Origin: Patescibacteria group bacterium
Lineage (GTDB): Bacteria > Patescibacteriota > Doudnabacteria > UBA920
DNA: 64,000 bases
Assembly: GCA_023484515.1 (NCBI GenBank)
Contig: JAMDAY010000030.1
Coordinates: 1,320-65,319 of the forward strand
Reading direction: 5' to 3'
Shown: positions 1 through 22,417 of the stretch, one piece after another
Position numbering within the stretch: position 1 is the stretch's first letter
How the letters are laid out: each line of letters starts with the position of its first letter
Notes under the pieces: generated by a model
Database searches by the model: none
What the model was told of the DNA's origin: nothing
The model's input: the letters and a program-made list of their open reading frames with translations, nothing else
Position numbers and translations under genes: made by a program

Positions 1-1021
1 TAAGATTGAAACCAGCTGACAAGTTTCGTCCATCGGAATTTACACCGCCCAACCTTTTGGTTTTTGTGTCATCATAAATATAGGCATCGATGCTAACCTT
101 TGCCGTTTCTACAAAATTCCATCTTAAAGGTTCGTAGTGCGAATAGTCTGACAGCGCAGGCTTGATGTCCGTAACCAGAAGAGTCTTTTTGAGAGTAGCG
201 GGAAAATCATCCCCGAAAACTTTTCTCCACTCCTCGACGGACTTTTCCAGATCATCGTCTTCTTCAAACTCACATGCCTTTGTTGCCCGACTAAGGGCAG
301 TGCTTAGGTGGCTTTTTAGATCAGTGTCGGTTGTGGTGAGGTGGAAGTGGCTGAAAAATTCTTTTGCTAAAGTTGAAAGTTCTGTTTCCGCAAAATCGCC
401 GCTCGTAAAAAACTCCACCACCTTATTTTCTATCTGGTAAGATTTTAATTTTGCCGTACAATTTTCCGACCACTTTTTTATCATGCGGATGAGCATCCGG
501 GTCCGGCCGGTTTCCGAATCAGAATCCGCAATTCGTTGCATTTCGGCCCGGGGGTCCCACTGCTCCCAAGAGCCGCCATTTTCGGAATTGGGAATCGTGA
601 AAGTGCCGCTGTCATTTTCCCACGCAGGCAGCAGCTCGACATCGTGCTTGGTATCGGCAAATTCCAAAACTACCACTTTGCCGAAGGCCTTGATCGGCGT
701 GTCCGGATATTTCTCTTCCAAAATGCATTTAACATCCTGAAGCAGTTGGGATTGCTTGTTGGACTGGTTGTCGTTGTACTGGTCGAACTTTTCCGGCGGC
801 ATTATAAAAATAACGTCGATGTCTCGTGCGGGGCGGATATGGGTATGTTTGCCATACGACCCGATCAGCAGCTTTGTGCTGCCGTTGTATTCAAGGTCGG
901 GGTAATAAAAATCGTGAAGTTTTTTGCAAACTCCCGTGTACTTTGTTACTGCGTCCTCCCTTTGGGCGAGAGTCAGCTTTATATTTTCGTAAAATTTCTC
1001 AAATTGTTCTTGAATACTCAT
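1..1021 (-). CDS. cGAS/DncV-like nucleotidyltransferase (CD-NTase, SMODS domain); partial, 3' end runs off window start
   Basis: The minus-strand ORF is absent from the supplied track because it runs off the window edge. Translated by hand it begins MSIQEQFEKFYENIKL at 1021-1019. It contains the GS-loop plus first acidic pair (IGSYGKHTHIRPARDIDVIFIMP) and, about 75 aa later, a third acidic residue in an hDhhPA-type motif (KHDVELLPAW), followed by GGSWEQWDP. This spacing is the CD-NTase/SMODS catalytic arrangement. The plus-strand track ORFs at 483-1045 overlap it and are spurious. Confidence 0.6.
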   Translation of the reverse strand, partial: MSIQEQFEKFYENIKLTLAQREDAVTKYTGVCKKLHDFYYPDLEYNGSTKLLIGSYGKHTHIRPARDIDVIFIMPPEKFDQYNDNQSNKQSQLLQDVKCILEEKYPDTPIKAFGKVVVLEFADTKHDVELLPAWENDSGTFTIPNSENGGSWEQWDPRAEMQRIADSDSETGRTRMLIRMIKKWSENCTAKLKSYQIENKVVEFFTSGDFAETELSTLAKEFFSHFHLTTTDTDLKSHLSTALSRATKACEFEEDDDLEKSVEEWRKVFGDDFPATLKKTLLVTDIKPALSDYSHYEPLRWNFVETAKVSIDAYIYDDTKTKRLGGVNSDGRNLSAGFNL

Positions 1022-1098: not shown

Positions 1099-4000
1099 GT
1101 GCATCGGATAGGCAAGGACAATAGCCAAAACAAGGCAAATTGCCTACAAAAGTCTACTCGAAGCTTTATAACCTGTTTCTCCAAAATTAGGGAAATCGGT
1201 TTACGAAACCAAAATAAAATCAAAAATATGTCCCCACAAAAGCGGCAATTATTGCTGGCTTCGGAGCATTTAATCCCCCTGTCCGAAGCGGCTAAGCTTA
1301 CTCCATATAGCGCGGAGTATTTAGGGTATTTGGTCAGGAAAGGTAAAATCGAAGCTATAAAAATGTCCCGCGACTGGATGACTACCAAGGAAATTGTTCT
1401 TGAATATACCGGAGAACAAGAAGGGCGGCAAAGAAGGCTGTTTGAACGGTTTCAGCAGGTCAGCGCGGTTAGCCAAGCCGGCTTTATTGCGTTTAAAACT
1501 TTATTAGGAACGATATGTTTGGCAATTATTGCCACGGAAAGTGTCTTGATTGGCGGCGCGGTACATTTGCAACCGAGAAATCTTTTGTCTGAAACAGCGC
1601 ACCAAATTTATTTTAAAACATCATCTATTACAAATAAGTCGCTAGCCGTGGCTGGCAGTTATGCCGGTTATTTTAACGCCGAGCTGGACCGGACGATTTT
1701 AGCTCTTGGATTAAATATAAACAGTGACTTGGAAAGCGCGGATTATTTGGCGTGCAGCTTGGGATATCAAACTAAGCAGTTAGCCAAAAATTTAATTACC
1801 GACGTCAAAGCGCCGTACATTGCTGCTGGCGATGTTATTCGTTCGGCCCTTGGCGAACAAGCAACGCAAGCTGCCTGGGCTTTTGGCAATGCCAAAAGCG
1901 GATGGAACCAAATGGCTTTATTTTATAATAATCAGTTAAGTGTAGTGGCGCACAATGCAGCACACATGGCAAAACCAGCTGTCTCAAACAGCTGGAATAA
2001 TGTGGTAGAAAATGTGGGGCTGTTGGATAAACTTGCCGGAAATAATTTTAGTACAGACTCTTATGTTTCCAAGGATAGTCATTTGATTTCAGGATCACAG
2101 GTCGTAGCCCAAAATGACACAAAGGGTAAAGTCCTCGGTAAAACTATTTCTGTTAAACCAGCTGTTCCGACTGCCAGCAAAATCGCCACTGTCAAACCGA
2201 AAGCAACAGCCATTAACCAAAGACCAAAAACTCAACCCGTTAAATCCGCAGTAATAACTTATTCAGCCGCTGACCCTAGTTACATAAACCAGCTTATTGA
2301 CTCCCGCTTAAACCAGTATCTGGCGGCAGGTAAGTTCAAAGGCGCAAAGGGCGACAAAGGCGATGCGGGAGGAATGGTTACCGGCAGCAACGGCCAGCAG
2401 ACCGTGGCGGTTGGCGGCTATCCTTTAGTCACTTATTATCCTTCCAACCCCGCCCAAAACTTTAGCGGTGCGTCGCTTGCCGGATTTACGGACTTGTCTT
2501 CCAATAATTTTTCCACTGGCAAGGCAACCGTTAGTAATACTCTAACCGTAAGTGGTGCGGCCTCTTTTCTTAATACCGCTTCCTTTGCCACTACTACCAT
2601 TTCTTCCTTGGCAGTTTCCGGTACAGCCACATTGCCAAATATTGCCACTACCACTATCTCCAGCCTTACGGTCTCCGGGCCCGTAACTCTTTCCGGTTCT
2701 GCTACTATTGTAGGTTTGACCGTAACCGGCTTAAATCCGGGGCTTGCTTTGGGCAGCGTGGCGTTCCAGGGAGATGCCGGTCTTGCGGAAGACAACAGTA
2801 ATTTTTATTGGGATAAAACCAATCACAGGCTGGGTGTAGGTACTAGTTCTCCGGTTACTGCTTTGCAGGTTGCAGGTATCGCGACGTTGTCAGGCCTGCA
2901 AGTTTTTGGCAACTCAACTACGACCGGCAACCAAGTTATTGGCGGTAATAATTCAGTTTCAGGCAACCAAAATATTTCCGGGCTTTCCAGTTTAGCCACC
3001 ACAACCGTTACTCGCCTTACTGCCACAGGTTCCACGACCATCCAAACTTTAACCGCTGGCGTGGTCCGTTCCACTTCGGGCGGAGATTTATTTGTCGGTC
3101 AAATTAATAACGCCGATTTAGTCAATTCGTCCCTGACAGTCACGGCTGGGACGGGATTAACCAGTGGTGGCAGCGTGTCTTTAGGCGGCTCCACTTCTTT
3201 GGGCGTGGCTTATGGAGCGGCACTGGGCACAGCGGTACAAGGTAACACTCAATTAACCGTAACAGCCGGTACTAATTTGACCGGCGGTGGCACTATTACT
3301 TTGGGTTTGGGCGGCACTTTGGCTTTAGCCGTTTCATCAACCCCAACCTTTACCACTATAAATGGGCTGACATTAACAGCAGGCACCGGAACACTGGCTT
3401 TAAATAATAATACTTTGACTGTTACCGGTAATTCCACGATCAATCAAAATTTAACCACAACTTCCACGCCAGCCTTTACCGGCCTAGCTGTTAATGGGAT
3501 ATTAACTGTAACGGGCGCGTCCAATTTAGCAACCGCGACCATTACTTCCCTGGCCGTTTCCGGCCCTGCCGTGTTAAGCGGTTCAACCACCATTGCCAGC
3601 TTAACTGTTTCCGGAATATCAACTTTGCAAAATTTAAATTTTGCAATCGCCACGGGCACCAGTTTGACTGTACTTTCTACCAGCACGTTAAATTCAGTTT
3701 TTGCGGTTAGCCTCACCGTTACAGGTACCAGTACTTTGGCAACTACCTCTGTTACAAATCTATCCGTAACAGGTCCGGCAGTCTTTAATTCCTTAACCGC
3801 CAGTGGTACCGTGTTCAGCAGCGCGAATTTAATCGGCACCACCACCTCTTACGGGCTTTTAACCATTCAGGGCAGCGGCACTTCTTCTCCGTTCACCGTG
3901 CTTTCCGCGCCTGACGCTTCTTCATCAGTCAGCACAATTTTGGCCGTCTCCAGCGTCGGCAATATTAGTATGGGTTTGGCGGCCACAACCAGCACCAGTT

Positions 4001-5379
4001 CATTGGTTTCCCGTTTGAATATAACCGGCGTGGGTACAACTACGGCTTCTTCTTCCTTGAATATCCAGAATTCTGCCGGACTGGCGCTTTTATTTGCCCG
4101 TAATGACGGACAAATAGGCATTGGCACCACCTCGCCTAATGCCACGCTCGCCATTCAGGGTACCGCCGGTTCCACGGCCCAGCTTTTTGATGTGGCCTCT
4201 TCCACCGGCATTTCCTATTTCCATATTACTTCCTCCGGCCAAGTCGGCATTGGCACCTCCACGCCCGCCGCGCTTCTGTATCTTTATTCCACCTCCACCA
4301 GCACGCCGTTATTTGCCATTGCCACTGCCACTAACGCCAGTATTTTTAATATCTTAGCCAACGGCTATACGGGAGTCGGGAAAATTCCGTTGCGTCCTTT
4401 GGATGTTAATGGTATTGCCCGGGCCGATAGTTTTGAACAAAACTGCCCAGCCGGATATATTTGGGTTCCAGGCTCGGCCAAATACGGCACGCTTCCCGGT
4501 TTTTGCGCTATGAAATATGTCGCTTCTTCCGATGGTACTACTAACTGCAATGGCGCCGCTTGTCCGGTGTCAACAGCCGCTAATTTGCCGTGGGTTTCCA
4601 TTAATTGGAACCAGTCCCAAACCGCCTGCCAGTCTTTGGGTCTGAATTATCACCTTATTTCCGACCAGGAATGGATGACTATAGCCGACAACGCGGGCCA
4701 TACGCCGATTAACGATTTAGACAGCGCCGCGGGTTTGCAAATGGCCAATGGCCACAGCGACAACGCTCCGGCCAATGCTTTGGCTTCTTCGGCAGGCAGC
4801 GATCCGGTAGTTTCCGGCTGCAATTTGAACAAACCTATGTATGACGCCAGTAATGCTTATGTTGCAGGTTCTTGCGAGATCCGCGGGGCAGGCAGCGGCG
4901 GTTATACGGATGCGGATAAAGGTTATTATGGCACCGGCCAGCAATACGCCACCACCGGATATTCTTCCGGCGGCTCTAACAGTTCCCAAATGCGCACCAA
5001 AGTTTTGAGTAACGGCACCGTGATTTGGGATATAGGCGGTAATGTTTGGCAGTGGACCGACGCTTATATTTACAGCGCCACTTCCACCGAGCCTACGGAA
5101 ATGCCAACTCCGGCTGACCAAAACTGGCACAATTATTCGTCTATTACTAATTATAAAGGCCTGAATTATATTCGTCCCTGGTTGCAAACTTTAACCAGTT
5201 CTAACGGTATAGGTCAAATCTATACCAGTAATACCAATGCTGATGACGGTAGCGGTTACCACGCCTTCGAACGCGGCGCCGGTTGGGGCATTGGGTCGGC
5301 TGCCGGGGCCTTTGCCCTGATTCTGAACTATGGTCCGTCCTTTACGTTCGGCGACATTGGTTTTCGGTGCTCCCGTTGA
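1099..5379 (+). CDS. DGR target protein: 1426-aa surface protein with N-terminal HTH-like segment, one TM helix, long Thr/Ser/Gly/Leu-rich beta-helix-like repeat region, a short collagen-like GxK run, and a C-terminal C-type-lectin/FGE-sulfatase-like domain carrying the variable region
   Basis: Long ORF. The N-terminus (SEAAKLTPYSAEYLGYLVRKGKIEAIKMSRDWMTTKEI) resembles an excisionase/MerR-type HTH. A TM helix follows (LGTICLAIIATESVLIGGAV). The central region has hundreds of residues of LTVTGxSTL-type repeats and one GAKGDKGDAGG run. The C-terminus has the CLec/FGE hallmarks WNQSQTACQSLG, HLISDQEWMTIA, GGNVWQWTDAYI, ERGAGWGIGSAAGAF and IGFRCSR. The last 120 nt are the VR. An alternative start exists at ATG 1225 (MSPQKRQ). 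Confidence 0.85.
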   Translation: MHRIGKDNSQNKANCLQKSTRSFITCFSKIREIGLRNQNKIKNMSPQKRQLLLASEHLIPLSEAAKLTPYSAEYLGYLVRKGKIEAIKMSRDWMTTKEIVLEYTGEQEGRQRRLFERFQQVSAVSQAGFIAFKTLLGTICLAIIATESVLIGGAVHLQPRNLLSETAHQIYFKTSSITNKSLAVAGSYAGYFNAELDRTILALGLNINSDLESADYLACSLGYQTKQLAKNLITDVKAPYIAAGDVIRSALGEQATQAAWAFGNAKSGWNQMALFYNNQLSVVAHNAAHMAKPAVSNSWNNVVENVGLLDKLAGNNFSTDSYVSKDSHLISGSQVVAQNDTKGKVLGKTISVKPAVPTASKIATVKPKATAINQRPKTQPVKSAVITYSAADPSYINQLIDSRLNQYLAAGKFKGAKGDKGDAGGMVTGSNGQQTVAVGGYPLVTYYPSNPAQNFSGASLAGFTDLSSNNFSTGKATVSNTLTVSGAASFLNTASFATTTISSLAVSGTATLPNIATTTISSLTVSGPVTLSGSATIVGLTVTGLNPGLALGSVAFQGDAGLAEDNSNFYWDKTNHRLGVGTSSPVTALQVAGIATLSGLQVFGNSTTTGNQVIGGNNSVSGNQNISGLSSLATTTVTRLTATGSTTIQTLTAGVVRSTSGGDLFVGQINNADLVNSSLTVTAGTGLTSGGSVSLGGSTSLGVAYGAALGTAVQGNTQLTVTAGTNLTGGGTITLGLGGTLALAVSSTPTFTTINGLTLTAGTGTLALNNNTLTVTGNSTINQNLTTTSTPAFTGLAVNGILTVTGASNLATATITSLAVSGPAVLSGSTTIASLTVSGISTLQNLNFAIATGTSLTVLSTSTLNSVFAVSLTVTGTSTLATTSVTNLSVTGPAVFNSLTASGTVFSSANLIGTTTSYGLLTIQGSGTSSPFTVLSAPDASSSVSTILAVSSVGNISMGLAATTSTSSLVSRLNITGVGTTTASSSLNIQNSAGLALLFARNDGQIGIGTTSPNATLAIQGTAGSTAQLFDVASSTGISYFHITSSGQVGIGTSTPAALLYLYSTSTSTPLFAIATATNASIFNILANGYTGVGKIPLRPLDVNGIARADSFEQNCPAGYIWVPGSAKYGTLPGFCAMKYVASSDGTTNCNGAACPVSTAANLPWVSINWNQSQTACQSLGLNYHLISDQEWMTIADNAGHTPINDLDSAAGLQMANGHSDNAPANALASSAGSDPVVSGCNLNKPMYDASNAYVAGSCEIRGAGSGGYTDADKGYYGTGQQYATTGYSSGGSNSSQMRTKVLSNGTVIWDIGGNVWQWTDAYIYSATSTEPTEMPTPADQNWHNYSSITNYKGLNYIRPWLQTLTSSNGIGQIYTSNTNADDGSGYHAFERGAGWGIGSAAGAFALILNYGPSFTFGDIGFRCSR

Positions 5380-5407
5380 GGCTGGTTGAGGCGGGTTCGC
5401 GAGGGGT
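5260..5407 (+). repeat. DGR variable region (VR) at the 3' end of the target gene, with the IMH region extending past the stop codon
   Basis: This 148-bp segment aligns base-for-base with TR 6575-6722. All of about 17 mismatches fall at positions where the TR has A (A->G, C or T). The 3' part (attggttttcggtgctcccgttgaggctggttgaggcgggttcgcgaggggt) is identical in both. The stop codon TGA lies at 5377-5379, inside the invariant IMH. Confidence 0.9.
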
Positions 5408-5497
5408 TTCCTGGAAATTTAGCAATAACTTAGTTTAAAGCCCAAAATTTTGGAACCGTAAGAACGGTGAATCTAAAATCAAAAATCTAATAATCTA

Positions 5498-5538
5498 AAA
5501 AACCCGCCCCTTCGGGGCGGGTTTTCAAAATTTTTTTA
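5498..5538 (+). terminator. Rho-independent terminator downstream of DGR target gene
   Basis: The sequence acccgcccc-ttcg-gggcgggt forms a GC-rich hairpin followed by ttttcaaaattttttt. Confidence 0.8.
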
Positions 5539-5596
5539 TGGTTCTACGTCAAAATATAATACCTATTCCAGTTTTGCCATTTTTCATAGCAGAAAA

Positions 5597-5896
5597 TTAA
5601 GGAGTTTGCGGAAATGGTTCCAAAGAAAGGATGTCTTTGGCTTCTTTAGTGGAAATGATTTTGTTTTTTTCCAAAACTGATACCAAGGCCAAAAGCTTGC
5701 GGTCTTCTTTTTTTATCAAAACGGTGAGGTCGCCTTTCAAATCCAAAAGCTTTTCGTCCAGATAATCTTTGGTGACCATATTCTGCTCAATTTTTGTGAC
5801 CCGGCTCTCAAGTCCGTCAAACCTTTTTTCCACTTTATTGGAAAACACTTGGACTGCTTCCAGCACGTCGCTGATGGTTGGTTCGTTTTTTGGCAT
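5597..5896 (-). CDS. hypothetical small coiled-coil protein
   Basis: ORF 5597-5953; the likely start is MPKNEPTISDV at 5896. The product is predicted charged and helical (LESRVTKIEQNMVTKDYLDEKLLDLKGDLTVLIKKEDRKLLALVSVLEKNK). It sits between the DGR VR and Avd on the opposite strand. Confidence 0.45.
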   Translation of the reverse strand: MPKNEPTISDVLEAVQVFSNKVEKRFDGLESRVTKIEQNMVTKDYLDEKLLDLKGDLTVLIKKEDRKLLALVSVLEKNKIISTKEAKDILSLEPFPQTP

Positions 5897-6121
5897 ATGT
5901 TTATATGTTAGTATCCGTAATTGCAGTATAGGCCGCCTGGTTTTGGTTGTCAATCATAATCCGCAATTATCAAGACGGCAAACGCGCTAAAATCTTTCAA
6001 GTTTTCCACTTTTTATTATTTGGATAATGTTGTAAAATAAAAATAAGCGCTAAAGCGATTAAAAACCCGAGAAACAAAAAGCAAGAAAATTTGCGCTACA
6101 TAATTGAAGGAGGATTTTTTT

Positions 6122-6493
6122 ATGTTGTCTGATTTGTTAGTCTTTCAAAAAGTTTACGAGTTCGTGCTGTGGGTTAAGCCAACTGTCCAGCGGTTTGAAA
6201 GGGTACATAAATATAGTTTAGGTCAGCAATTGGAGAATGAAACTTTGCAGCTGCTCAAAGACGTGGCTAGGGCCAACTTAAAGCGCGATAAAGCCGCAAG
6301 TATAGAAGACTGCCTGGTGTGTTATGAATTGGTTAAAGTGCTGGTTCGATTAAGCAAAGATTTTAAATTATTGAGCATAAAACAATACGAATTTGCCGCA
6401 GTCAGGCTTGACGAAATAGGCAGGCTTTTAAACGGGTGGAAAAATAAATTCGGCAATATAAACAAGCCGCTTTCGCTCCAAAAGAATACTTAA
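6122..6493 (+). CDS. avd: DGR accessory variability determinant (Avd)-like four-helix-bundle protein
   Basis: A 123-aa ORF preceded by a GGAGG box 8 nt upstream of ATG 6122. It lies between the VR and TR, the usual Avd position. Its sequence (FQKVYEFVLWVKPTVQRFERVHKYSLGQQLENETLQLLKDVARAN) follows the same pattern as the four-helix-bundle/IVS-protein family member at 57764-58186 (FPKEEMFGLAIQIIRAAVSITSNIAEG). Confidence 0.65.
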   Translation: MLSDLLVFQKVYEFVLWVKPTVQRFERVHKYSLGQQLENETLQLLKDVARANLKRDKAASIEDCLVCYELVKVLVRLSKDFKLLSIKQYEFAAVRLDEIGRLLNGWKNKFGNINKPLSLQKNT

Positions 6494-6574
6494 ACAAATT
6501 ATAAGCCGAAAGTCCGTAATTACGTTTATGGATTTTTCGTTTATGGTTTTACGGATTTTAGGGACAAAGCGAAT

Positions 6575-6722
6575 AACGCCTTCAAACGCGGCGCCAATTG
6601 GAACAATGGGTCGAATGCCGGGGCCTTTGCCCTGAATCTGAACAATGGTCCGTCCAATACGAACAGCAACATTGGTTTTCGGTGCTCCCGTTGAGGCTGG
6701 TTGAGGCGGGTTCGCGAGGGGT
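6575..6722 (+). repeat. DGR template repeat (TR)
   Basis: This non-coding 148-bp copy of the VR is adenine/AAC-rich (aattggaacaatggg, ccaatacgaacagcaac). It differs from the VR only at A positions and shares the GC-rich IMH-like 3' end. It lies between Avd and the RT. Confidence 0.9.
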
Positions 6723-6979
6723 GGGTAACACCCTGGCCAAGAAATTGGCCTTGCTGGAATTTTTATCTCCTACGGGAATAAAAAGAGAGCACTATAAACC
6801 CCAGCTTTGCTCCTTCTTGAGTAAGCCTTTTTGGGCTGAAAGGGAAAATATGGGCCGTTACCCCAAAAGCGTAAGGATTATCTTTCGGGTTTGGGTAAAG
6901 TAAAATAGGTCCTTTCGTGGGATGGGTATTTTCTACGTCGTCTTTATGGGCCGGGAAGATACCCATCTTGCTATATTAT

Positions 6980-7996
6980 ATGTTCAACAAAGTTTGCAGT
7001 TTCGAAAATCTCTATCAGGCATACATAAGAGCCCGCAGATGCAAACGGCAGCGCGATTACGTTTTGGAATTTGACGCCCACGCCGAAGAGAACCTGCTGG
7101 CCTTAAAAAATGAATTAAAGGAAGGCAATTATTGCCACGGCGGATATAAGGAAATGGTTGTCTGTGATTCCAAAAAACGGCTTATTAAAGTCGCGCCTTT
7201 TAGGGACCGGATTGTCCACCACGCCTTGTGCGCGGCTATTGAGCCAATTTTTGACAAAGGCTTTATTTTTGATACGTATGCCTGCAGGAACGGCAAGGGT
7301 ACGCACAGCGCCGTAAAAAAGCTGCAGCAATTTTTGAGGCAGCCGGAAGCGCGGTATTGTTTGAAATGCGACATATCCAAATATTTTGCCAGCATTGACC
7401 ATGAAATATTATATCTTCTCATTTGTGAAAAAATAACTGACGAAAACACTTTAAAACTTATCAGGAAAATTATAGATTCCAGCTATGACCGCCTTGTTTA
7501 CGAGGATTTATTTACCGTCCGCAAGACCGGTATTCCGATTGGCAACCTGACTTCCCAATTGTTCGCCAATATTTATTTAAGCGAGTTAGATAATTTCGTC
7601 AAGCATAAACTTAGGGAAAAATTCTATTTGCGGTATATGGATGATTTTTTGGTGCTGGGAAATGAAAAATTACGGTTGGGGCGGATAAAATCCATAATTA
7701 GGCAATTCTTGAGCAGCCGGATGCGCCTTGTTTTGCATCCGAAAAAAGCTGAAATTTTTCCGGTGCGTGGCGGGGTGGATTTTTTGGGTTATAAAGTTTT
7801 TATTAATTACAGACTGCTGCGCAAGAGCACCGTGCGGAGGTTTTTGGCAAAATACCGGCGCGGCAGAAAGCTGGTGAGTTCGGGTAAGATGGAAGAAAAA
7901 ACTTTACGCGATTCGGTACGGTCCTGGCTGGCTTACGCCAAATTCGGCAACTCTTGGAAACTGCGCCAAGAGTTGCAGATTAAGTGGCTGAAATGA
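6980..7996 (+). CDS. DGR reverse transcriptase
   Basis: The RT motifs are present: KCDISKYFASIDH, the DGR-specific IGNLTSQLFANIYL (IGxxxSQ rather than group-II QGxxxSP) and YMDDFLVLG. The N-terminus (FENLYQAYIRARRCKRQ) is typical of DGR RTs. The ORF opens at 6917, but the likely start is M 6980. Confidence 0.9.
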   Translation: MFNKVCSFENLYQAYIRARRCKRQRDYVLEFDAHAEENLLALKNELKEGNYCHGGYKEMVVCDSKKRLIKVAPFRDRIVHHALCAAIEPIFDKGFIFDTYACRNGKGTHSAVKKLQQFLRQPEARYCLKCDISKYFASIDHEILYLLICEKITDENTLKLIRKIIDSSYDRLVYEDLFTVRKTGIPIGNLTSQLFANIYLSELDNFVKHKLREKFYLRYMDDFLVLGNEKLRLGRIKSIIRQFLSSRMRLVLHPKKAEIFPVRGGVDFLGYKVFINYRLLRKSTVRRFLAKYRRGRKLVSSGKMEEKTLRDSVRSWLAYAKFGNSWKLRQELQIKWLK

Positions 7997-8807: not shown

Positions 8808-9353
8808 TTACTGCAAGAGTATTTCCGCAGTATTGACTTGGCTGTTGCAGTTGACGAGTAGGTGGATCGGTAGGTTTTTTTGGTTCAGCGCAACCAAGAC
8901 GTAATTGTAAGCGGCCACCGAATACGAATGTCCGGCAACAGTAATTGTTTGTGCTGCGTTGGAACGGTTATCCAGCATGATTGTGACAAGGTTAGCAATA
9001 GCCATTTGGCTCGGAATAGCCTGACAGCTTGAGTTGAATTGTATGCGGGAACTTGCGTACTTAACTACCGTGTCGCCATAACTGAGGGGCTTGGGCGGGG
9101 CAGGTTTTGGTTTGCGGAATGGAATAAACTTGCTAGCCGGAGTAGATGTATTAATCGTATCCGCAGTAGAGGTTGCGGCTTGGGTGGGCGCAGGGATCTG
9201 GTCTTGTACGGGAACGATTGCTGTGATTTTCACTATTGGGGTTTTTTGGGTAGCCAGACGCTTAGGCCTTTGCCTTTCGTAGGTTATTGAACTAATAATA
9301 ATCATAATGACAGCCACAGTCGCCCAAATTATTGCCTTCGTGTTTTTTGTCAT
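8808..9353 (-). CDS. hypothetical membrane-anchored protein (last gene of T4SS-like operon)
   Basis: An N-terminal TM helix (AIIWATVAVIMIIISSITY) is followed by a Pro/Thr-rich linker and a C-terminal domain. The gene is co-directional and contiguous with the upstream T4SS-like genes. Confidence 0.5.
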   Translation of the reverse strand: MTKNTKAIIWATVAVIMIIISSITYERQRPKRLATQKTPIVKITAIVPVQDQIPAPTQAATSTADTINTSTPASKFIPFRKPKPAPPKPLSYGDTVVKYASSRIQFNSSCQAIPSQMAIANLVTIMLDNRSNAAQTITVAGHSYSVAAYNYVLVALNQKNLPIHLLVNCNSQVNTAEILLQ

Positions 9354-9369
9354 AAGTTCAATAAAATAT

Positions 9370-10128
9370 TTACTTTTGCCAATCGCTTAAGCTGGTTTGG
9401 GTAAAAGCATAAGCCGGGTCTATGGGCTGGCTGCTTCGCCACAAGGCAAAGTGCAAGTGTTTGCCCGTAGCCCAGCCGGTGCTGCCTTGCAGGCCAATGA
9501 CTTGTCCTGCTGTGACTTTGTCGCCAACTGCCAGCGGCGGCTCGGTTGCCAAGTGGCAATATTGGCTTGAGAGTGAGTCCGCATGGACAATGATAACTTC
9601 ATAGCCGCAGCCATATTGCACGTCAGCGGCTTCTTTTACTTGGTACCAACAAATGCCGTAGTCGTTATCGTCACAAAATTTCCAGCGTCTTGTTGTGTTT
9701 TCTAAAATATTGCTGTTTACCGCTGCTACTGTTCCGTCGGCAAAAGCCCGGACTTCAGTTTGCCTGGGCTCGTAGTCAGCCATGTCCCAAGCAACATGCA
9801 ACCGCCCGACTTTTGCCGAGGAATCTAGAATTACGCCTTGCGTTAATGACCCCAAGGTCGGGAAAGCATACGGGTGCTTAAAGTCATACCAGGTCTCGCC
9901 GTAAATGGTTTTGTAACTAAAGCTTTGAAATTCGGCAAACTGCGCTAAATTGGGGTTTACCGTGCCGTCTGCAACTTTGCCGTTGCCCTGCAAGACCGCA
10001 ATAATAGTTGCCAAAACCAGATACAAGATAAAGGCGGCGCTCAAAGTTAATAGTGCCAGCCACAGCAAAAATCGCTTAATTCTATTCCTGTTGGCATAAA
10101 GGGTGTAGGCGGCCTGAGCTGGGTTCAT
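9370..10128 (-). CDS. M23/LytM family metallopeptidase (cell-wall hydrolase) with N-terminal TM anchor
   Basis: The C-terminus (GDKVTAGQVIGLQGSTGWATGKHLHFALW) matches the M23 peptidase signature. An N-terminal TM helix is present. Confidence 0.8.
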   Translation of the reverse strand: MNPAQAAYTLYANRNRIKRFLLWLALLTLSAAFILYLVLATIIAVLQGNGKVADGTVNPNLAQFAEFQSFSYKTIYGETWYDFKHPYAFPTLGSLTQGVILDSSAKVGRLHVAWDMADYEPRQTEVRAFADGTVAAVNSNILENTTRRWKFCDDNDYGICWYQVKEAADVQYGCGYEVIIVHADSLSSQYCHLATEPPLAVGDKVTAGQVIGLQGSTGWATGKHLHFALWRSSQPIDPAYAFTQTSLSDWQK

Positions 10129-10142
10129 AAGGCAATAGATAA

Positions 10143-12542
10143 TTAGCGCGGCGGCTTAGTGGTACAAATTAGGTCTTCCTCCTGGCTGCTTTTTATGGAG
10201 AGAGGTATCTTGGAATCATTGATAATGAGCAGGCCTTTGCCAATTTCCAAGCGTTCCAAATAAGCGCGCTCGGGTTTGTTAATATGAACTTTTTCGTTGA
10301 GCTTATCAAAAGAGTCACTGACTTTGTGCTTCATGATCAAGGTCAGGGAAGACTGGTCAAATAAGTCTGAGGTGCGCGCAAACCCGCTGTTGTAATAATG
10401 GTTAATGGATTGGACAATGGTCGTGACCCCCGAGTTGTATTTCCTGCCCCGCAACGCCAAGGAAGCCAGCTTTTCCACAATCAGGCTGGATTGGAACAGT
10501 TGGCTGGCTTCGTCCACAATCAAGCTTTTAAACCGGGCTTTGTTTTTGGGATGGTTAATGTAACTCCAATAACTTTCTAAAATCACGGCCACCACAAAGT
10601 CTCGCTTGTCCACGTACTTTAAGGCAAAAACAATTAAGTCATCGCTGGCAAAATCAATATTTTGCTGCTTGTTAAACAGGTAGTACTGTGGATGCCGCGG
10701 TTCGGTGTAAGACCTTAGGACCGTAAGCAAGTTTTCGATTGTTCGGTTTTTTACCAGCCGGTCAATCTCCCTGATAAAGTCCTTGAGTACCGGTTGGTGG
10801 TTATTTTGGAGGCACTGCTCATACACAGCACCGATAGCTTTTTCCAACTGCGTCATGTCAGTTACGCTGATTTTTTCGTTCTGGTAGAGTTTCTGGAAAA
10901 GCTGCCTGACAAACTCGATTTTTTGCGCCTTGTACTCCGGGCCTGGAATGTGGAAAGGGTTAATGTAATAAATGGATCGATCGGAAAGCTCTATGTATTT
11001 GCCTTTGAGATAACTGGTGACCATTTCAAATTCGTTCTCCACGTCCAGGACAAATGACTGGTAGCCGATCATGCGGCTGCGGATGAGGTCTAGCTTGATA
11101 AAATAGGATTTGCCCGCGCCGGTGGAAGCGATAATTGAGCGGTTGTAGCTTTCCAGCTCTTTAATGTCTATGGTAACCAAGGAGCGGTTGATTTCGTCTA
11201 CGCCGTAAAGGATGCCAGTATTAGAAGAAATTTGTGGGGTAATGAAGGGAAAAGTAAAAGCCGCGACTGAGGTGTCAATGTCCCTGTGGTTTTTGGTGTC
11301 AGTATTGCTTGCGCCCGCAATGAACGTGCCTTTAAGGCCTTCCAGCTGCTCGTAGTGGTAAATCCTGGACTGCATCATTTTGCGGCTTAAGACCCGCTCC
11401 ATGTTCATGTGCACCATGTTTAAGGCCTGTAAGGTACTGGAACGGAACGTAACCTCGATTTTTAAGTCAATGGGCTTGATCTCTGACTTTAAGTATTGCC
11501 TTTCAATCCGTTCCGTGCTTTCCAGCACCAAGTTGTCAGCGATGTTTTTTGGCTTGTGCGCTTGGGTCTCGTCAAAAATTTTGGATTCAATGCGGTGGCG
11601 CTTTTCGGTAATTTTCATCACGGTCTCTTTGGGGTCTTTGCTGGTAAAGGTAAACATAAGGTCTGAGGCGTAAGGGAACATGATGATTTCCTTAAACCAG
11701 TCAATATAGGCATAAGAACCGAGTTCACTAATGAATTCCGATCGCAGGAGGTTTTTGCCGTTAATACTTAACAAATCAATGTTTTCTTCTTCAATAAAAT
11801 CCGGGCTGATTTTGTTAATGATGGAAAACGGCAGGCCTTGCTCTAAAGCCTTTTTGCGAAAGTCCTCAATGTGCCCGTAAAACTGCCGGTTATGGAGGAA
11901 TTTCTCTTCATCCAGGTAAGCCATTATCACCCGGACAAGCTCTTCGGTTTCCATAATTTTGACTTTTAAATTTATAGCCTGGAGCTGCGACTTAAAAGTG
12001 GTGAGGATGGCAATCATGCTTTGCCTGGCTTCTTGGAATATTTCCTGTTCGGTAATCCGCCGCCTTTTTTTGCCATCCTTTTCTTCCCGGCTGACAATGT
12101 CTTTGGACAACGTGTATTTCAGCTCGCTGAATTCCAACAACAGGAAGAATTTTTTGGTGATAATCTCGTAGTCTTTGCTGATGTCCCGGATAAAGTCGGC
12201 GTATTTTTCAAACAGGTCATAGGTGCCCAGGCCGCGGATGCTGTAGGCGTGCTCCAGTTGGCCGATATAGTCATCGGCGTTGGTCTTGCGGGTTTGCACT
12301 AAGACCCGCAGCGGGTACTTTACGTCAATTTCCCTGAGGACCTGCTCAAAGCCTGTAATGGCTCGCTTCTTTTCCGCTTCATCCATGAGGCCAAAGTTGG
12401 CCGGAAAAACTTCCAGGCACATGCGGTATGAGCCGTTCTTCATAATTAGGCAGCCGCCCTTGATGTCCTTGAACTGCCAAAAATTAGCCAGGGTCTGGAA
12501 TTTAGGCTTGGTTTTGAAAAAGAGCTTATTGATAAATGACAT
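10143..12542 (-). CDS. virB4: VirB4/TrbE/CagE-family type IV secretion ATPase
   Basis: A 799-aa protein with Walker A (STGAGKSYFIKLDL) and Walker B-like (SLIVDEASQLF) motifs. Its N-terminal domain resembles the 58204-58917 ORF, and the protein is paralogous to the 59034-60878 ATPase. Confidence 0.8.
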   Translation of the reverse strand: MSFINKLFFKTKPKFQTLANFWQFKDIKGGCLIMKNGSYRMCLEVFPANFGLMDEAEKKRAITGFEQVLREIDVKYPLRVLVQTRKTNADDYIGQLEHAYSIRGLGTYDLFEKYADFIRDISKDYEIITKKFFLLLEFSELKYTLSKDIVSREEKDGKKRRRITEQEIFQEARQSMIAILTTFKSQLQAINLKVKIMETEELVRVIMAYLDEEKFLHNRQFYGHIEDFRKKALEQGLPFSIINKISPDFIEEENIDLLSINGKNLLRSEFISELGSYAYIDWFKEIIMFPYASDLMFTFTSKDPKETVMKITEKRHRIESKIFDETQAHKPKNIADNLVLESTERIERQYLKSEIKPIDLKIEVTFRSSTLQALNMVHMNMERVLSRKMMQSRIYHYEQLEGLKGTFIAGASNTDTKNHRDIDTSVAAFTFPFITPQISSNTGILYGVDEINRSLVTIDIKELESYNRSIIASTGAGKSYFIKLDLIRSRMIGYQSFVLDVENEFEMVTSYLKGKYIELSDRSIYYINPFHIPGPEYKAQKIEFVRQLFQKLYQNEKISVTDMTQLEKAIGAVYEQCLQNNHQPVLKDFIREIDRLVKNRTIENLLTVLRSYTEPRHPQYYLFNKQQNIDFASDDLIVFALKYVDKRDFVVAVILESYWSYINHPKNKARFKSLIVDEASQLFQSSLIVEKLASLALRGRKYNSGVTTIVQSINHYYNSGFARTSDLFDQSSLTLIMKHKVSDSFDKLNEKVHINKPERAYLERLEIGKGLLIINDSKIPLSIKSSQEEDLICTTKPPR

Positions 12543-12984
12543 GGGAGAGGTAGTTGCCTATGAAAGCCAAAAGGAGGAGGCCTAAGGCCAAGGCAATAAA
12601 AATAATAATAAAAGTTTTCATATGGTTTTCTTCCTGGTAAACGAGTTGTTTGGCTTTAAAGCTGGCCGTGCCGCTTGCGGCATGGTGGTGGTAGATTAAG
12701 GCTTTAGGCTGGTTTTTGTAGTAGAAGAAAATAAAGAGCAGGTGACGATAAAAATTTCTGCCATGAATTTCGGCAATGCCGCAAAGCGATAAAGTGGCTA
12801 AAGCAAACATGCCCAGGCCGGTTGGCAGTTGTTTGTCCACTAGGCTAAATACTCCAAGGCCGACAAACAGCGTGGCAATAAATACCAGCACAATTTGTCT
12901 AAGGCCCAATCCCCAAAACAAGGTAACTTTGTAGCCTTCGATGGATTCAGGGATGTCGATTTTAAATGATTTATCTTCGGGCAT
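12526..12984 (-). CDS. small membrane protein, VirB3/PrgI-like candidate
   Basis: A 152-aa protein with two hydrophobic helices. It sits immediately upstream of VirB4 and overlaps it, the typical VirB3 position. Confidence 0.45.
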   Translation of the reverse strand: MPEDKSFKIDIPESIEGYKVTLFWGLGLRQIVLVFIATLFVGLGVFSLVDKQLPTGLGMFALATLSLCGIAEIHGRNFYRHLLFIFFYYKNQPKALIYHHHAASGTASFKAKQLVYQEENHMKTFIIIFIALALGLLLLAFIGNYLSHVIYQ

Positions 12985-13001
12985 AGGGGTTTTGGTTTAG
13001 G

Positions 13002-14312
13002 TTAGCTTTTTAATCTCTTTAACCGGTAATAGAGTCCGGCTCCGGACTGCGCGCCTTTCCTGATGACCGAACGGAAGCCTGCCACTTCAGAGGCATTGGC
13101 AATCTGCTGCAGCAAGTTGTTGCTATCCGCGACAATGGCCATACCAACAAGCATCAAGATTAAATTACCCAAAGAGAAGCCGCCGGAGCTTAAAAACACA
13201 AAAACTATGAGCAGGATCAGCAGGTCAAACATCAGTCCAAAGCTGGTCACAAAAAACTTGTGCCAGAAAATCATAGCCATATTCTTGGTCTCGTTAAAAA
13301 ACAACATGGGCGTGAAAATGGGAGACAAAAGGATCATGATCAGCAGCAGGAAATACCGTTTGGCGTTCCTAAACACCACAAAGCCAAACAGGACAACATA
13401 AACCAGCACAAAGATTGTCAGGCCAATTAAGGCCAGGCCAAAGCTGCCGGAAGAATTCCAGAGGCCGTCGGCAATCAAGGCTTTTAAGGCAATGGTTAAA
13501 CCATTGGCTAGCTGGGTATTAAATAAAAAGGTGGCAAAGGCTTGGGCGGTTAGGATTAAGGCTTCGGCCAAGTACCTGGCCAAAAACACCCCGGCAAACC
13601 CCAGCAATATCTTACCCACGTCTCCCACAAAATCGCTGGAGAAGTCCTGGTCCAAGGAAAAAATTATGGCTTTGAAATAGTGGGTCACCACCAGCAAGTA
13701 GACCCAGGCCAAACCGATAATCTCACTGAGCTTAAGCAGGCTGTTAAAATTGGCAATCTGCTGCAGTTTGCCTGGGGACAGGTTCGGGTCGCTATTAAAC
13801 AGTTCAGCTGGCAGGCTGAATAAAAAATTAAAATTAAATTTTTCCACGACTTTTCCCACCACGGTTCCCAGTCCCCGGACTACTTTTTCAATGATAATGC
13901 CTAAGACGTCATTGATAGTCTTTTTGACGCAGTCAATGGTGTCAACCACAATTAAAATACACTTGGGGTCGGTGATGTTGCTTTGGATGTCACTAATTTC
14001 ACTGCCGAGCAGATTGGTGTTATTAATGTCATTCGTGGAGGGCAGTTTGCCCGTAATGTCCTCTTTAACTCCGGCGTAGAAATTGCTCATGTAGGCTTCG
14101 TGAAAGGCAAAGACAAAGGCTCCGGAAAGGAACAACATAATAAAGCCCACAATTACGGTTTGGACGACCAGGTTGGAGCGAACGACGTCATCGTGCTTGC
14201 CAGTGTTTCTTAAGGCTCCGGCAATGGCAATGACAAAAACACCAACCACCATGCTGATGGCGATTATGGCTGGGACATAATGCGCTAAAACAGCTTTAAT
14301 CAGGTTGTCCAT
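13002..14312 (-). CDS. polytopic membrane protein, VirB6/TrbL-like candidate
   Basis: A 436-aa protein with about 8 predicted TM helices. It lies in a T4SS-like operon between the VirB8-like and VirB3-like genes. Confidence 0.5.
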   Translation of the reverse strand: MDNLIKAVLAHYVPAIIAISMVVGVFVIAIAGALRNTGKHDDVVRSNLVVQTVIVGFIMLFLSGAFVFAFHEAYMSNFYAGVKEDITGKLPSTNDINNTNLLGSEISDIQSNITDPKCILIVVDTIDCVKKTINDVLGIIIEKVVRGLGTVVGKVVEKFNFNFLFSLPAELFNSDPNLSPGKLQQIANFNSLLKLSEIIGLAWVYLLVVTHYFKAIIFSLDQDFSSDFVGDVGKILLGFAGVFLARYLAEALILTAQAFATFLFNTQLANGLTIALKALIADGLWNSSGSFGLALIGLTIFVLVYVVLFGFVVFRNAKRYFLLLIMILLSPIFTPMLFFNETKNMAMIFWHKFFVTSFGLMFDLLILLIVFVFLSSGGFSLGNLILMLVGMAIVADSNNLLQQIANASEVAGFRSVIRKGAQSGAGLYYRLKRLKS

Positions 14313-15240
14313 AATTTATTTGGGAGAGGTTGTTAATTTGTTTACAGCCTTCGTAGCCATATTTAAAATATATTTTTGGAGATTTGGCAAAACCTACGCT
14401 GATCCGGCTAAGCGTGAGCTGGCTGTCCACGCCGTTTTTTTCCAGGATTTCGTTGTCAGCCAAAAATATCCGGTTAGATTGCGAGTCCCGGAGCACCAGA
14501 AAAGAAAACAAGCCTGCGGGCTGGGTCTGGGCATTTCGGGATTTGAGTAAGTCCTTGTCTTCCAGGTTCGGGTCGCGGACGTCCAATATTTTATCCCCGA
14601 TTTGCGCTTTCCAATCCGGGCTCGTTTTTATGAATTCAGCCAGTTTAGCCATGGAAGAATAACGCCAGTCATAAAGCTCAATGCCGGTGGCTTTTTCAGT
14701 CTTGTCATCAAGGTCGCAGACCAAGCCGCCAAGTTTTACCAGAGTTGGCTGGTCGCTTAAGAAGCCCTTATCCTTGGCGTACTGGTAGCGGGCACGGGCG
14801 TGATTTTCCAAATAATTGAAGCTTTCCGGCACGACTGTAGACAAGTCACCGCCGGTTAAAGGCGTCAGGCCGCTGTTAATGAACAGAAGATCTTCGAACT
14901 TCCTGCGGACCAACTCCTGGTTCTTTCCTTCCAGCCACTGCTGCAGTTCGCCCGTAAAAGATTCTACAGTTTGGGTCTGGATTTTTTCCTTGTACGCCTG
15001 GCTTTGCCAATAGGTCTCGTCGGCAATTACCGTTTCCCGGGTCGGAGAAGGTTTTGGGTTGCTTACTTTGGGTTGGGGGGAAATGCGCCAGATTTGCAGG
15101 TAGATTGCCACTGCAAACAACAGGCTAATGTACAAAACCGCCCGCAGGTTAAAGTTGGGAACAAAAGTTTTTACCAAACCATCCAGCCTGTAAAGCCAGC
15201 TATTTCTTTTGGGTTGTTTGGTTTCTTGCTCATCGCTCAT
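14296..15240 (-). CDS. bitopic membrane protein, VirB8-like position (hypothetical)
   Basis: A single N-terminal TM helix (LRAVLYISLLFAVAIYLQIW) is followed by a roughly 250-aa periplasmic/extracellular domain. The assignment rests on operon position only. Confidence 0.4.
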   Translation of the reverse strand: MSDEQETKQPKRNSWLYRLDGLVKTFVPNFNLRAVLYISLLFAVAIYLQIWRISPQPKVSNPKPSPTRETVIADETYWQSQAYKEKIQTQTVESFTGELQQWLEGKNQELVRRKFEDLLFINSGLTPLTGGDLSTVVPESFNYLENHARARYQYAKDKGFLSDQPTLVKLGGLVCDLDDKTEKATGIELYDWRYSSMAKLAEFIKTSPDWKAQIGDKILDVRDPNLEDKDLLKSRNAQTQPAGLFSFLVLRDSQSNRIFLADNEILEKNGVDSQLTLSRISVGFAKSPKIYFKYGYEGCKQINNLSQINYGQPD

Positions 15241-15270
15241 AGGCTAATGTGGTTAATAATTATCTTGGCT

Positions 15271-15642
15271 TTAAGCATTAGACTTTATGCCAACCAGGCC
15301 TAAGACATACAGGATGAGGCCAATGATAAAGATGGCAGCAAAAGTTATGCCCACGCCCACGACCGTGGATCTCAGTCCGGCCTTGGCTTCTTGGGACTTG
15401 ATGGGATCAGAGCCTGAAGACTGCAGCTTAATGCCGTACCAGGCAACCATGATGACCGCGTAGAGGACGGCAATGCCGAAGATGACCCCGATACCGATAT
15501 TGGCAAAATCCCGAACCGGTTTCATTTTATCTGACTCCCAGACTGACATGTCTGGTTTGGGCAGTTCCTGGGCAAGCGCGATTGAGGCGGTTAAAAATAG
15601 GGCGGAGACACTGGCCCCAAGTGAAGCAATAAATTTTTTCAT
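15271..15642 (-). CDS. T4SS pilin-like protein (VirB2/TrbC-like): signal peptide plus two hydrophobic segments
   Basis: A 123-aa protein with a signal peptide (MKKFIASLGASVSALFLTASIALAQE) and two TM segments (IGIGVIFGIAVLYAVIMVAWY and VVGVGITFAAIFIIGLILYVLGLVGI). It lies in the T4SS-like operon. Confidence 0.55.
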   Translation of the reverse strand: MKKFIASLGASVSALFLTASIALAQELPKPDMSVWESDKMKPVRDFANIGIGVIFGIAVLYAVIMVAWYGIKLQSSGSDPIKSQEAKAGLRSTVVGVGITFAAIFIIGLILYVLGLVGIKSNA

Positions 15643-15727
15643 TGTTGTTACGTTAGTGTATTAATAATTGAGATACCCTAAAGATATATTCGCTCTCAGC
15701 TATCATTGGAATAGATGTAATTGTTCA

Positions 15728-16615
15728 TCATAAAAAATTAAATAACTTAATTCTTTGGGTAATTTCAGCTTTGAGCAGCCCGTCTTTACTTAACCTAACT
15801 GTGCTTTCTGTTGCATAAATTGGTTCTAAAAATTGCTTGGCTCCGGCAATTAAGTCCAAGTGGGTAGTGACAATGTTGAGTTTTAGAAGGCCAGGGCGGT
15901 TCATAAAAATATTGAGCCAAAAGGAGCGCTCCATCCCTTGGGTTTGGAACACTAACCGCAGAGTGTATTGTTCAGAGTTTTGCAAAGCAAGAAAGTCCCA
16001 GTACCTTTGGACCTTATTAAGCAAGGATTCGTTGGATTTTCGGGTGCGCTCAAATTCCGTGTAAACTTTGTACTCCGCCTGGCTGGTCTTGTAAACTACG
16101 GTGTAATCGGGGGTTAAGGCTTCCACACGTTTGTCGCTTATATAGTCTTGTGTTTGCGAACTGTCTTCGCCTTTAAAGCTAAAACTTAAATTTGCAGACT
16201 TGTTCAAGCTTTCCAAACTGGCCAGCTCCACGATTTGGGCTTCATGCTTGAACAATCCCCAGGACAGCAAAGTCTTGGCTGTCGGGTAATTTTTCAGGCG
16301 CTGCCACTCATACTGGCCACACTCAGTCAAGACTTTTAGTCCTTGTTTGGAAAGCATATAAAACAGCGAGAAGCCGCCGCCGGAAAAAACCTTAAAGCTT
16401 TCCAAAAGTTTAGCCTGCCACATTCGGCGGAGTTTGGTATACATGTACCGGCTCCGCTCTTTTTGGCTGAGGAACCTGGTAATATGGCAGCTGGAGGCCA
16501 GCCTAAACTCCAAGACTAAAGCCAAAATCTCCAACGCGGACTGGTTTATTTCCACGTTATACGGGCTTACGTTAGCCCTGGGGGTGAGTTTTACGTCAAG
16601 GGTGTTTAAATACAT
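15728..16615 (-). CDS. hypothetical protein (possible winged-helix / relaxation-accessory protein)
   Basis: A 295-aa soluble protein lying between the coupling-ATPase and pilin genes. No decisive motif was seen. Confidence 0.45.
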   Translation of the reverse strand: MYLNTLDVKLTPRANVSPYNVEINQSALEILALVLEFRLASSCHITRFLSQKERSRYMYTKLRRMWQAKLLESFKVFSGGGFSLFYMLSKQGLKVLTECGQYEWQRLKNYPTAKTLLSWGLFKHEAQIVELASLESLNKSANLSFSFKGEDSSQTQDYISDKRVEALTPDYTVVYKTSQAEYKVYTEFERTRKSNESLLNKVQRYWDFLALQNSEQYTLRLVFQTQGMERSFWLNIFMNRPGLLKLNIVTTHLDLIAGAKQFLEPIYATESTVRLSKDGLLKAEITQRIKLFNFL

Positions 16616-16632
16616 ATTTTAGTTTTGCTAAA

Positions 16633-19823: not shown

Positions 19824-19950
19824 TCCACCAAGGGAAACTTTCAGGATTTTTAGAATTTTTTTTGGTCGCTTCGCTCCCATTGCAAACGGGGGGAAATGCA
19901 GTTTGAGCCAATATTTCTGCGTGCAAATCCCACGGCGGAAGAAAACGCAA
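19824..19950. repeat. left copy of a perfect 127-bp inverted repeat flanking the recombinase/Ubl cassette
   Basis: By base-by-base comparison, 19824-19950 equals the reverse complement of 24074-24200 over 127/127 positions. Confidence 0.95.
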
Positions 19951-21762: not shown

Positions 21763-21765
21763 TGT

Positions 21766-22167: not shown

Positions 22168-22417
22168 TGATGGAGCCTGGGTTTAAAGTTTTGGGACCGC
22201 TGTGAAATTGGGTACCATTTTTAAAAGTATACTCTTTGCTGTCGTTCGGAATGGGTTCGTCATCACCAGGACCAGGGATTTCCATTAATAGATTATAATC
22301 CGCTCCAATACCTGCCAGAGTATAAAGAGCTACGCCTGTAATCGGATTCTTAATTTTATATTCCTTCTTATCGATATGGATTACAACCTCATCATGTTGA
22401 TTGTCACCATGGGCCAT
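22160..22417 (-). CDS. small ubiquitin-like (beta-grasp / multiubiquitin-family-like) protein
   Basis: An 85-aa first gene of the operon, overlapping the E2-like gene. Its sequence (VVIHIDKKEYKIKNPITGVALYTLAGIGADYNLLMEIPGPGDDEPIPND) fits a beta-grasp fold. It has no C-terminal GG; it ends NPGSINA. Confidence 0.5.
   Translation of the reverse strand: MAHGDNQHDEVVIHIDKKEYKIKNPITGVALYTLAGIGADYNLLMEIPGPGDDEPIPNDSKEYTFKNGTQFHSGPKTLNPGSINA

Follow-up and report, generated by a model that had tools for sequence, protein, structure and literature searches.

A predicted minimal two-gene Type I CBASS, comprising a CD-NTase–AGS-C cyclase and a SLATT_4 effector, in a Patescibacteria genome

In a screen by the Kranzusch laboratory, about 40% of the Type I operons of cyclic oligonucleotide-based anti-phage signalling systems (CBASS) carry fusions of a cGAS/DncV-like nucleotidyltransferase (CD-NTase) to an AGS-C domain; among CBASS types these fusions are reported as specific to Type I, and AGS-C correlates with the phage families that are restricted (bioRxiv 10.1101/2023.05.21.541620). 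Systems of the same architecture defend Escherichia coli against phage (Richmond-Buccola et al., bioRxiv 10.1101/2023.05.21.541620), and a Type I CBASS on the Lactococcus plasmid pUCCL631, consisting of a 408-aa NTase/AGS-C protein and a 190-aa SLATT protein (PF18186), has confirmed anti-phage activity (PMC11381338). The defence repertoires of bacteria of the candidate phyla radiation (CPR) have previously been catalogued with standard tools (PMC12259885). Here we describe a cyclase gene at the left edge of a 64,000-nt stretch of a Patescibacteria (CPR) genome (contig JAMDAY010000030.1; the whole stretch is referred to below as the window). Together with the gene that adjoins it beyond the edge, it very probably forms a minimal two-gene Type I CBASS, predicted to consist of a CD-NTase–AGS-C fusion and a SLATT_4 effector with two transmembrane segments (2TM). 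This classification follows from the adjoining 2TM effector gene and from the lack of Cap2/Cap3 or HORMA/TRIP13 genes beside the operon.

The left flank was read from three Logan contigs (L001-L003), each of which encodes exactly the full-length cyclase (P0001, see below), and which reach 1,016 nt beyond the window edge. The window DNA is 100% identical to L002 over 5,269 nt and to L003 over 2,474 nt. The features of the operon are as follows, in window coordinates unless L001 is named; A1 denotes an alignment of 16 family members and PaCdnD the CdnD of Pseudomonas aeruginosa.

1-1021, minus strand: CD-NTase–AGS-C fusion, predicted CBASS cyclase, N-terminal 340 of 416 codons (translation, identity to P0001, Pfam SMODS and AGS_C, PADLOC, Foldseek).
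524-1021, minus strand: SMODS nucleotidyltransferase core, residues 1-166 (PF18144 model positions 1-162 of 164, E=1.9e-30).
857-862, minus strand: G54-S55, GS activation loop (invariant in A1; aligns with the GS of PaCdnD).
815-823, minus strand: D67-I68-D69, metal-binding acidic pair (invariant in A1; aligns with D62/D64 of PaCdnD).
635-637, minus strand: E129, predicted third catalytic carboxylate in the hEhhPA motif VELLPAW (invariant in 16 of 16; opposite the Asp of VSVDAVPAF in PaCdnD).
1-136, minus strand: first 45 residues (296-340) of the Ig-like AGS-C domain, with residues 341-416 off-window (Pfam PF18134, AlphaFold2, Foldseek).
L001 5533-6081, same strand as the cyclase: SLATT_4 2TM effector gene, 182 aa (PF18186, PADLOC PDLC00696).

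The frame from ATG 1021 on the minus strand is unbroken through 340 codons up to window position 1, and the gene runs ~230 nt past the left edge; read on L001, where the cyclase open reading frame (ORF) spans 4278-5528, ATG 1021 is the earliest start following the upstream stop. The fragment matches Pfam SMODS (PF18144) with E=1.9e-30 and 106.7 bits against a cut-off of 26.5, and matches 35 PADLOC oligonucleotide-cyclase models for CBASS with a best E of 1.5e-68, values far outside chance. The NCBIfam model CBASS_cyclase_b is matched with E=9.9e-30 and 104 bits, under its equivalog cut-off of 200. Sequence searches of the PDB place PaCdnD at the top (E=1.3e-9 with the single sequence, 5e-16 with a family profile), and all matches are CD-NTases, besides one marginal match to human OAS1, a related signalling NTase. 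A protein-database search retrieved the full-length protein, P0001, from a Patescibacteria metagenome-assembled genome (MAG); it is 416 aa long, 100% identical to the fragment, annotated ‘hypothetical protein’ and carries SMODS and PF18134 domains. The original prediction, which had been made from the window sequence alone, called this gene a partial CD-NTase at the window edge and translated it on the minus strand from ATG 1021; the SMODS and PADLOC matches bear out the assignment, and the translation is correct, as are the two peptides cited from it, GSYGKHTHIRPARDIDVIF (residues 54-72) and KHDVELLPAW (residues 125-134).

The C-terminal part of the full-length protein matches the AGS-C family (Pfam PF18134) over residues 296-416 with E=3.7e-26 and 92.0 bits against a cut-off of 26.7. 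In an AlphaFold2 model derived from A1 (mean predicted local distance difference test, pLDDT, of 71.5) this region is all-beta, and in Foldseek it matches the solved AGS-C domain of the Pycsar cyclase EcPycC (9ard_A; E=2.8e-5, template modelling score normalised to the target, TM(target), 0.62, root mean square deviation 3.7 Å, 19% identity). Judged by Foldseek, the model combines the NTase core and the helical C-terminal lobe of the CD-NTase fold: 31 of the 32 PDB matches at E<=1e-3 are bacterial CD-NTases and the remaining one is the AGS-C domain 9ard. The best matches are CdnD, CdnB, CdnC, DncV and CdnE, with probability 1.00 and TM(target) of up to 0.69.

The active-site residues G54, S55, D67, D69 and E129 are all invariant in A1 (16/16). 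D67 and D69 fall opposite the residues that are changed in the PaCdnD structure 6p8j (D62N/D64N) in a HMMER alignment, and E129 sits 60 residues past the DxD pair and ~75 past the GS loop. From the invariance in A1 and the alignment with PaCdnD, the predicted catalytic triad is GS / DxD / E, with the glutamate in an hEhhPA motif. The third acidic residue had been placed in KHDVELLPAW, about 75 residues on; the peptide and its spacing from the GS loop stand, and the catalytic residue is predicted to be E129, not D127, a position occupied by D, N, Q or K in A1. In the NTase fold, whose motif comprises a G[G/S] loop, a [D/E]x[D/E] pair and a third [D/E], the third catalytic position may be either acidic residue (PMC7288161), and E129 is consistent with this.

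Beyond the window edge, the cyclase ORF stops at L001 5528, and a co-oriented ORF of 182 aa opens 4 nt later, at ATG 5533. Its product matches SLATT_4 (PF18186) with E=1.5e-57 and 194.3 bits against a cut-off of 27, over model positions 4-165 of 165, and the PADLOC CBASS ‘2TM effector’ model PDLC00696 with E=9.3e-69. In the hydropathy profile, residues ~61-85 form a strongly hydrophobic segment; a weaker one, rich in Thr and Ser, lies before it at about 40-58. A convergent gene begins 124 nt past the SLATT stop, and over the flank covered, which extends to 233 nt past that stop, no Cap2/Cap3, E2-only, HORMA/TRIP13 or other ancillary genes adjoin the operon. The ancillary genes of Type IV CBASS are QueC-, TGT- and OGG-like. 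An effector gene had been expected just off-window to the left, where extension of the contig now places it on window-matching contigs, so that the absence of an effector, named as grounds for dropping the CBASS reading, did not materialise; the Cap2/Cap3 or HORMA/TRIP13 genes envisaged alongside it are not found beside the operon on L001-L003.

The GS...DxD...D/E layout is generic to polymerase-beta-type NTases, and the motifs alone do not separate CD-NTases from non-signalling members of that fold, for instance MNT antitoxins and KNTase-type resistance enzymes; weak Pfam matches below threshold, to the models for MTPAP-like enzymes and for archaeal CCA-adding enzymes, also point in this direction. 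The MNT and KNTase families (including NTP_transf_2), on the other hand, give no match at E<=1 in Pfam, NCBIfam or the PDB, so that the best match to such an enzyme which the original prediction had named as its refuter did not appear. The SMODS score is 80 bits over its cut-off, the significant sequence and fold matches in the PDB are CD-NTases (the marginal OAS1 match aside), no HEPN toxin partner adjoins the cyclase, and an AGS-C domain with an adjoining SLATT effector is a hallmark of SMODS systems. A non-signalling MNT or KNTase identity is therefore effectively refuted by the SMODS/CD-NTase matches, the AGS-C domain and the SLATT effector.

Several observations weigh against the assignment of the operon to Type I CBASS or limit it. 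The first hydrophobic segment of the SLATT_4 protein is weak by Kyte-Doolittle scan, and the 67-kb parent contig continues for ~2.4 kb to the left of L001, beyond the flank covered. The AlphaFold2 model is of moderate quality, with pLDDT below 50 in the stretch that contains the active-site loop (residues 51-70), so that active-site geometry cannot be checked from it. The nearest solved relatives belong to clade D (PaCdnD, 18% identity) and then clade B (BfCdnB), within a range of 13-18% identity, and AGS-C fusions are reported for clades B, F, G and H, not D (bioRxiv 10.1101/2023.05.21.541620).

The pairing of cyclase and 2TM effector recurs among relatives. A protein-database search returned 449 relatives at E<=1e-10; the best 120 of these, for which identities and domains are given, are 55-100% identical to the cyclase and nearly all carry SMODS and AGS_C. 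A survey of species-representative genomes gave 73 loci, with flanks of up to 6 kb per side. The closest relatives in this survey are mostly from CPR lineages (WWE3, Nomurabacteria, Magasanikbacteria, Levyibacteriota, Uhrbacteria, Saccharibacteria, Kaiserbacteria and Roizmanbacteria); a few lie in bins labelled Desulfonauticus, Syntrophobacterales or Methanoregula, and remoter ones, at 29-35% identity, are found in Bacteroidota and Proteobacteria. A SLATT_4 homolog is present in 28 of the 73 loci, nearly always a few nucleotides after the cyclase stop; the sampled loci without one mostly have another PADLOC CBASS 2TM effector as the downstream gene. The closest genome relative (L004 6007-8697; OY970175.1, a 899-kb MAG chromosome) encodes a cyclase-AGS-C protein, a second SMODS cyclase (306 aa) and one 2TM effector, a layout that, as predicted from its genes, is a tandem-cyclase CBASS.

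Three of the surveyed loci (L015 3109-5193, L017 6001-8081 and L020 3340-5423) encode a 302-303-aa cyclase without AGS-C, followed by an E2 gene (207-211 aa) and then SLATT_4. The E2 genes of L017 and L020 match PADLOC E2 with E of ~1e-34 to 6e-35, and the predicted layout is the E2-only Type II arrangement. The cyclase cores of these E2-only (‘Type II short’) systems are 59-70% identical to that of the window cyclase (68% for P0114, from L017); the SLATT_4 protein of L017 is highly similar to the one described here (E=1e-75), whereas those of L015 and L020 are more distant (E ~1e-28). These three loci have a separate E2 gene between cyclase and effector and lack AGS-C, whereas the operon described here has a fused AGS-C and lacks E2.

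Across A1 the cyclase core is 58-78% identical. Two classes of AGS-C domain can be told apart, one sharing 62-69% and the other 27-32% identity with the query; the classes are only ~30% identical to each other, and the cores that carry them are equally similar. Because AGS-C class does not follow core identity, the alignment suggests that the C-terminal module is swapped or diverges independently within the family. It is possible, and we propose it only tentatively, that a CPR-centred chassis of a conserved core (58-78%) and SLATT_4 carries interchangeable C-terminal modules, namely either of two AGS-C classes or a separate E2 with no AGS-C. If so, AGS-C and E2 would be alternative, functionally equivalent gates on the same cyclase, the family would offer a natural swap series for probing the role of AGS-C in Type I CBASS, and abortive-infection signalling would be spreading among ultra-small episymbionts.

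Relatives also occur on plasmids, in 1,094 records that are mostly enterobacterial and mostly conjugative, with the best showing ~30% identity over 98% of the query. On the E. coli IncX plasmid pMAS2027 (L077, NC_013503.1: 14233-18518) a 442-aa ‘nucleotidyltransferase’, 30% identical over 98%, is followed by a ‘SLATT domain-containing protein’ that has no detectable pairwise similarity to the SLATT_4 protein described here. This pair has IS1 upstream and two HEPN-domain proteins downstream. A literature search with the accession of the E. coli plasmid homolog found no paper. A search of phage genomes found no full-length homolog (best 66% coverage, 22% identity) and thus gave no evidence for carriage of the system by phages.

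The unusually good conservation of the family, at 55-78% identity over many CPR lineages, might be expected if the SMODS-AGS-C / SLATT pair served housekeeping or inter-cellular signalling of an episymbiotic host, for example in the control of membrane state, and not abortive infection. This explanation appears very unlikely: the spread is patchy across phyla and domains (CPR, Desulfonauticus, Syntrophobacterales and Methanoregula bins) and ~30%-identity relatives reside on >1,000 enterobacterial plasmid records, a pattern typical of mobile defence genes; the cyclase gene lies amid accessory and mobile genes (a diversity-generating retroelement, a type IV secretion system and a recombinase, described below); and systems of the same architecture act in anti-phage defence in other hosts.

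For the Type I CBASS, a mechanism can be proposed by analogy with characterised Type I systems, from which we infer what triggers the cyclase, what it makes and how the membrane is disrupted; the parts supported directly are domain make-up, conservation of the catalytic residues, operon layout and the cyclase-2TM pairing across relatives. The cyclase would remain idle until it receives a phage cue, linked in Type I systems to virion-assembly proteins. The AGS-C domain, which is believed to adjust the range of phages detected, might relay this cue. Once activated, the cyclase would convert NTPs into a cyclic oligonucleotide, either a di- or a tri-nucleotide, and this would be bound by the SLATT_4 effector, in which two hydrophobic segments are predicted to precede a helical cytoplasmic tail. 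Nucleotide-bound SLATT_4 may then oligomerise in the membrane, leading to membrane collapse and abortion of the infection.

Immediately upstream of the cyclase, and divergent from it as the original prediction had stated, lies the target gene of a diversity-generating retroelement (DGR), whose components and the intervening region are as follows.

1022-1098, no strand: divergent intergenic region, from the cyclase start to the DGR-target ORF (ORF map).
1099-5379, plus strand: DGR target gene (ORF map).
5261-5407: DGR variable region (VR).
6104-6493: bAvd, DGR component.
6576-6722: DGR template repeat (TR).
6917-7996: DGR reverse transcriptase (RT), DGR component.

The intergenic region presumably holds the operon promoter. 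Sigma-70-like hexamers 24 nt upstream of the ATG are no more numerous than in shuffled sequence, and a promoter and terminator scan around the operon likewise gave matches no commoner than in shuffled sequence, so the scan supports no regulatory claim for the operon. No homologs of the window RT, Avd or target C-terminus were found at the 73 relative loci, within the 6 kb of flank per side, so the adjacency of DGR and cyclase is specific to the window genome; the TR has a single match, the VR at 5261-5407, and none in the AGS-C domain or elsewhere in the cyclase. A functional tie between DGR and CBASS was rejected on these grounds as a coincidental adjacency. Between the window and the independently assembled L001 there are four base differences (at 5270, 5271, 5282 and 5291), all within the VR, and both L001 (positions 1-38) and L002 terminate inside it. 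This confinement of differences and contig ends to the VR suggests a population that is heterogeneous there, that is, an active DGR.

Further to the right, a conjugation/type IV secretion system (T4SS) cluster (8808-19320, minus strand) encodes an M23 peptidase, a 799-aa VirB4/TraG-P-loop ATPase, PrgI, a T4SS pilin, a Replic_Relax relaxase-like protein and an 895-aa coupling protein (TrwB/TraG-D_C). It is followed by a self-contained operon for conjugation of a ubiquitin-like protein (Ubl), a large serine recombinase and a tmRNA gene.

Within 20052-22417, minus strand: Multi_ubiq-like protein, 85 aa (weak match, E=0.0056).
Within 20052-22417, minus strand: Prok-E2_E protein, 133 aa (E=7.5e-33).
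Within 20052-22417, minus strand: Prok-JAB + ThiF fusion, 460 aa (domain matches).
Within 20052-22417, minus strand: DUF6527 protein, 111 aa (E=1.3e-22).
22664-24391, opposite strand to the tmRNA gene: large serine recombinase.
24194-24585, minus strand: tmRNA gene (ssrA).

The presence in the window of a ubiquitin-type module (20052-22417) and a DGR (1099-7996) besides the cyclase agrees with the original prediction. Such a module raises the question of whether the cyclase belongs to a Type II-like CBASS in which it is controlled in trans by these Ubl, Prok-E2_E, JAB-ThiF(E1) and DUF6527 proteins: the JAB-E1 fusion lies in the same ~24-kb accessory region, its ThiF domain, alone among the operon's products, weakly matches the PADLOC CBASS models for Cap2 (‘E1-E2’; best E=8.6e-14), and the close AGS-C-less relatives of the cyclase (L015, L017 and L020) have an adjoining CBASS E2 gene. 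The module is, however, 19 kb away, beyond the conjugation gene cluster, in a separate cassette between 100-nt inverted repeats that also holds the serine recombinase. It has its own ubiquitin-like protein and its own E2 (Prok-E2_E), which matches no PADLOC CBASS E2 model; AGS-C fusions are reported from Type I CBASS, not from other types (bioRxiv 10.1101/2023.05.21.541620), and the cyclase ends in an Ig-like domain, not in a free conjugatable tail. No sign of cooperation between the 19-kb-distant module and the cyclase was found, and a role for the JAB-E1 fusion as Cap2/Cap3 in trans was judged very unlikely on account of the distance, the module's own Ubl and E2 and the missing CBASS E2 match.

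The perfect 100-nt inverted repeat (19824-19923 and 24101-24200) flanks a 4.2-kb segment with the Ubl-operon genes and the serine recombinase, and its right copy overlaps the 3' end of the tmRNA gene by 7 nt. The segment may represent a cassette, invertible or mobile, that integrated at ssrA; an artefact of assembly is the other possibility. The recombinase ORF reaches ~200 nt into the opposite-strand tmRNA gene, and its C-terminal tail may be read-through made by integration at ssrA. A direct repeat copying the 3' end of the tmRNA, which would point to an att site and an island boundary, was sought without success, the 100-nt inverted repeat being present instead, and the GC content of the accessory stretch is indistinguishable from that of the rest of the window. 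With the DGR, T4SS, Ubl module, recombinase and tmRNA following rightward, the predicted Type I CBASS operon lies in an accessory and probably mobile stretch of DNA next to ssrA.

In its layout, the operon resembles EcCdnF04-SLATT6 of E. coli and the pUCCL631 system, which likewise consist of two genes, for a ~410-440-aa SMODS cyclase with an Ig-like AGS-C domain and an adjoining 2TM SLATT protein, without Cap2/Cap3 or HORMA/TRIP13 genes; the pUCCL631 effector even belongs to the same family (SLATT_4, PF18186). It differs from both in its CPR/Patescibacteria host, and the cyclase is only ~30% identical to the enterobacterial plasmid relatives and has Glu as its predicted third catalytic residue in place of the more usual Asp. 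The best solved match, PaCdnD (6p82/6p8j/6p8u; profile E=5e-16, Foldseek E=2e-11, TM(target) 0.69), aligns with the cyclase at the GS, DxD and third-carboxylate positions at an overall identity of 18%, but comes from a Type III CBASS, is regulated by HORMA/TRIP13 and lacks AGS-C, whereas the operon described here has neither of these partners and does have AGS-C. The AGS-C domain of the Pycsar cyclase EcPycC (9ard) shares the Ig-like beta-sandwich, carried there on a pyrimidine mononucleotide cyclase and here on a CD-NTase.

The two-gene CD-NTase–AGS-C and SLATT architecture is thus already described, and the current understanding of CBASS is unchallenged. The chief value of the present comparison lies in annotation, as it takes a protein listed by NCBI as ‘hypothetical’ to a predicted Type I CBASS CD-NTase–AGS-C with a SLATT_4 partner. 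Swapped AGS-C classes, or E2, on a conserved cyclase and effector could aid experiments on AGS-C in phage sensing, and the operon adds a CPR example to an architecture so far studied in Proteobacteria and Firmicutes.

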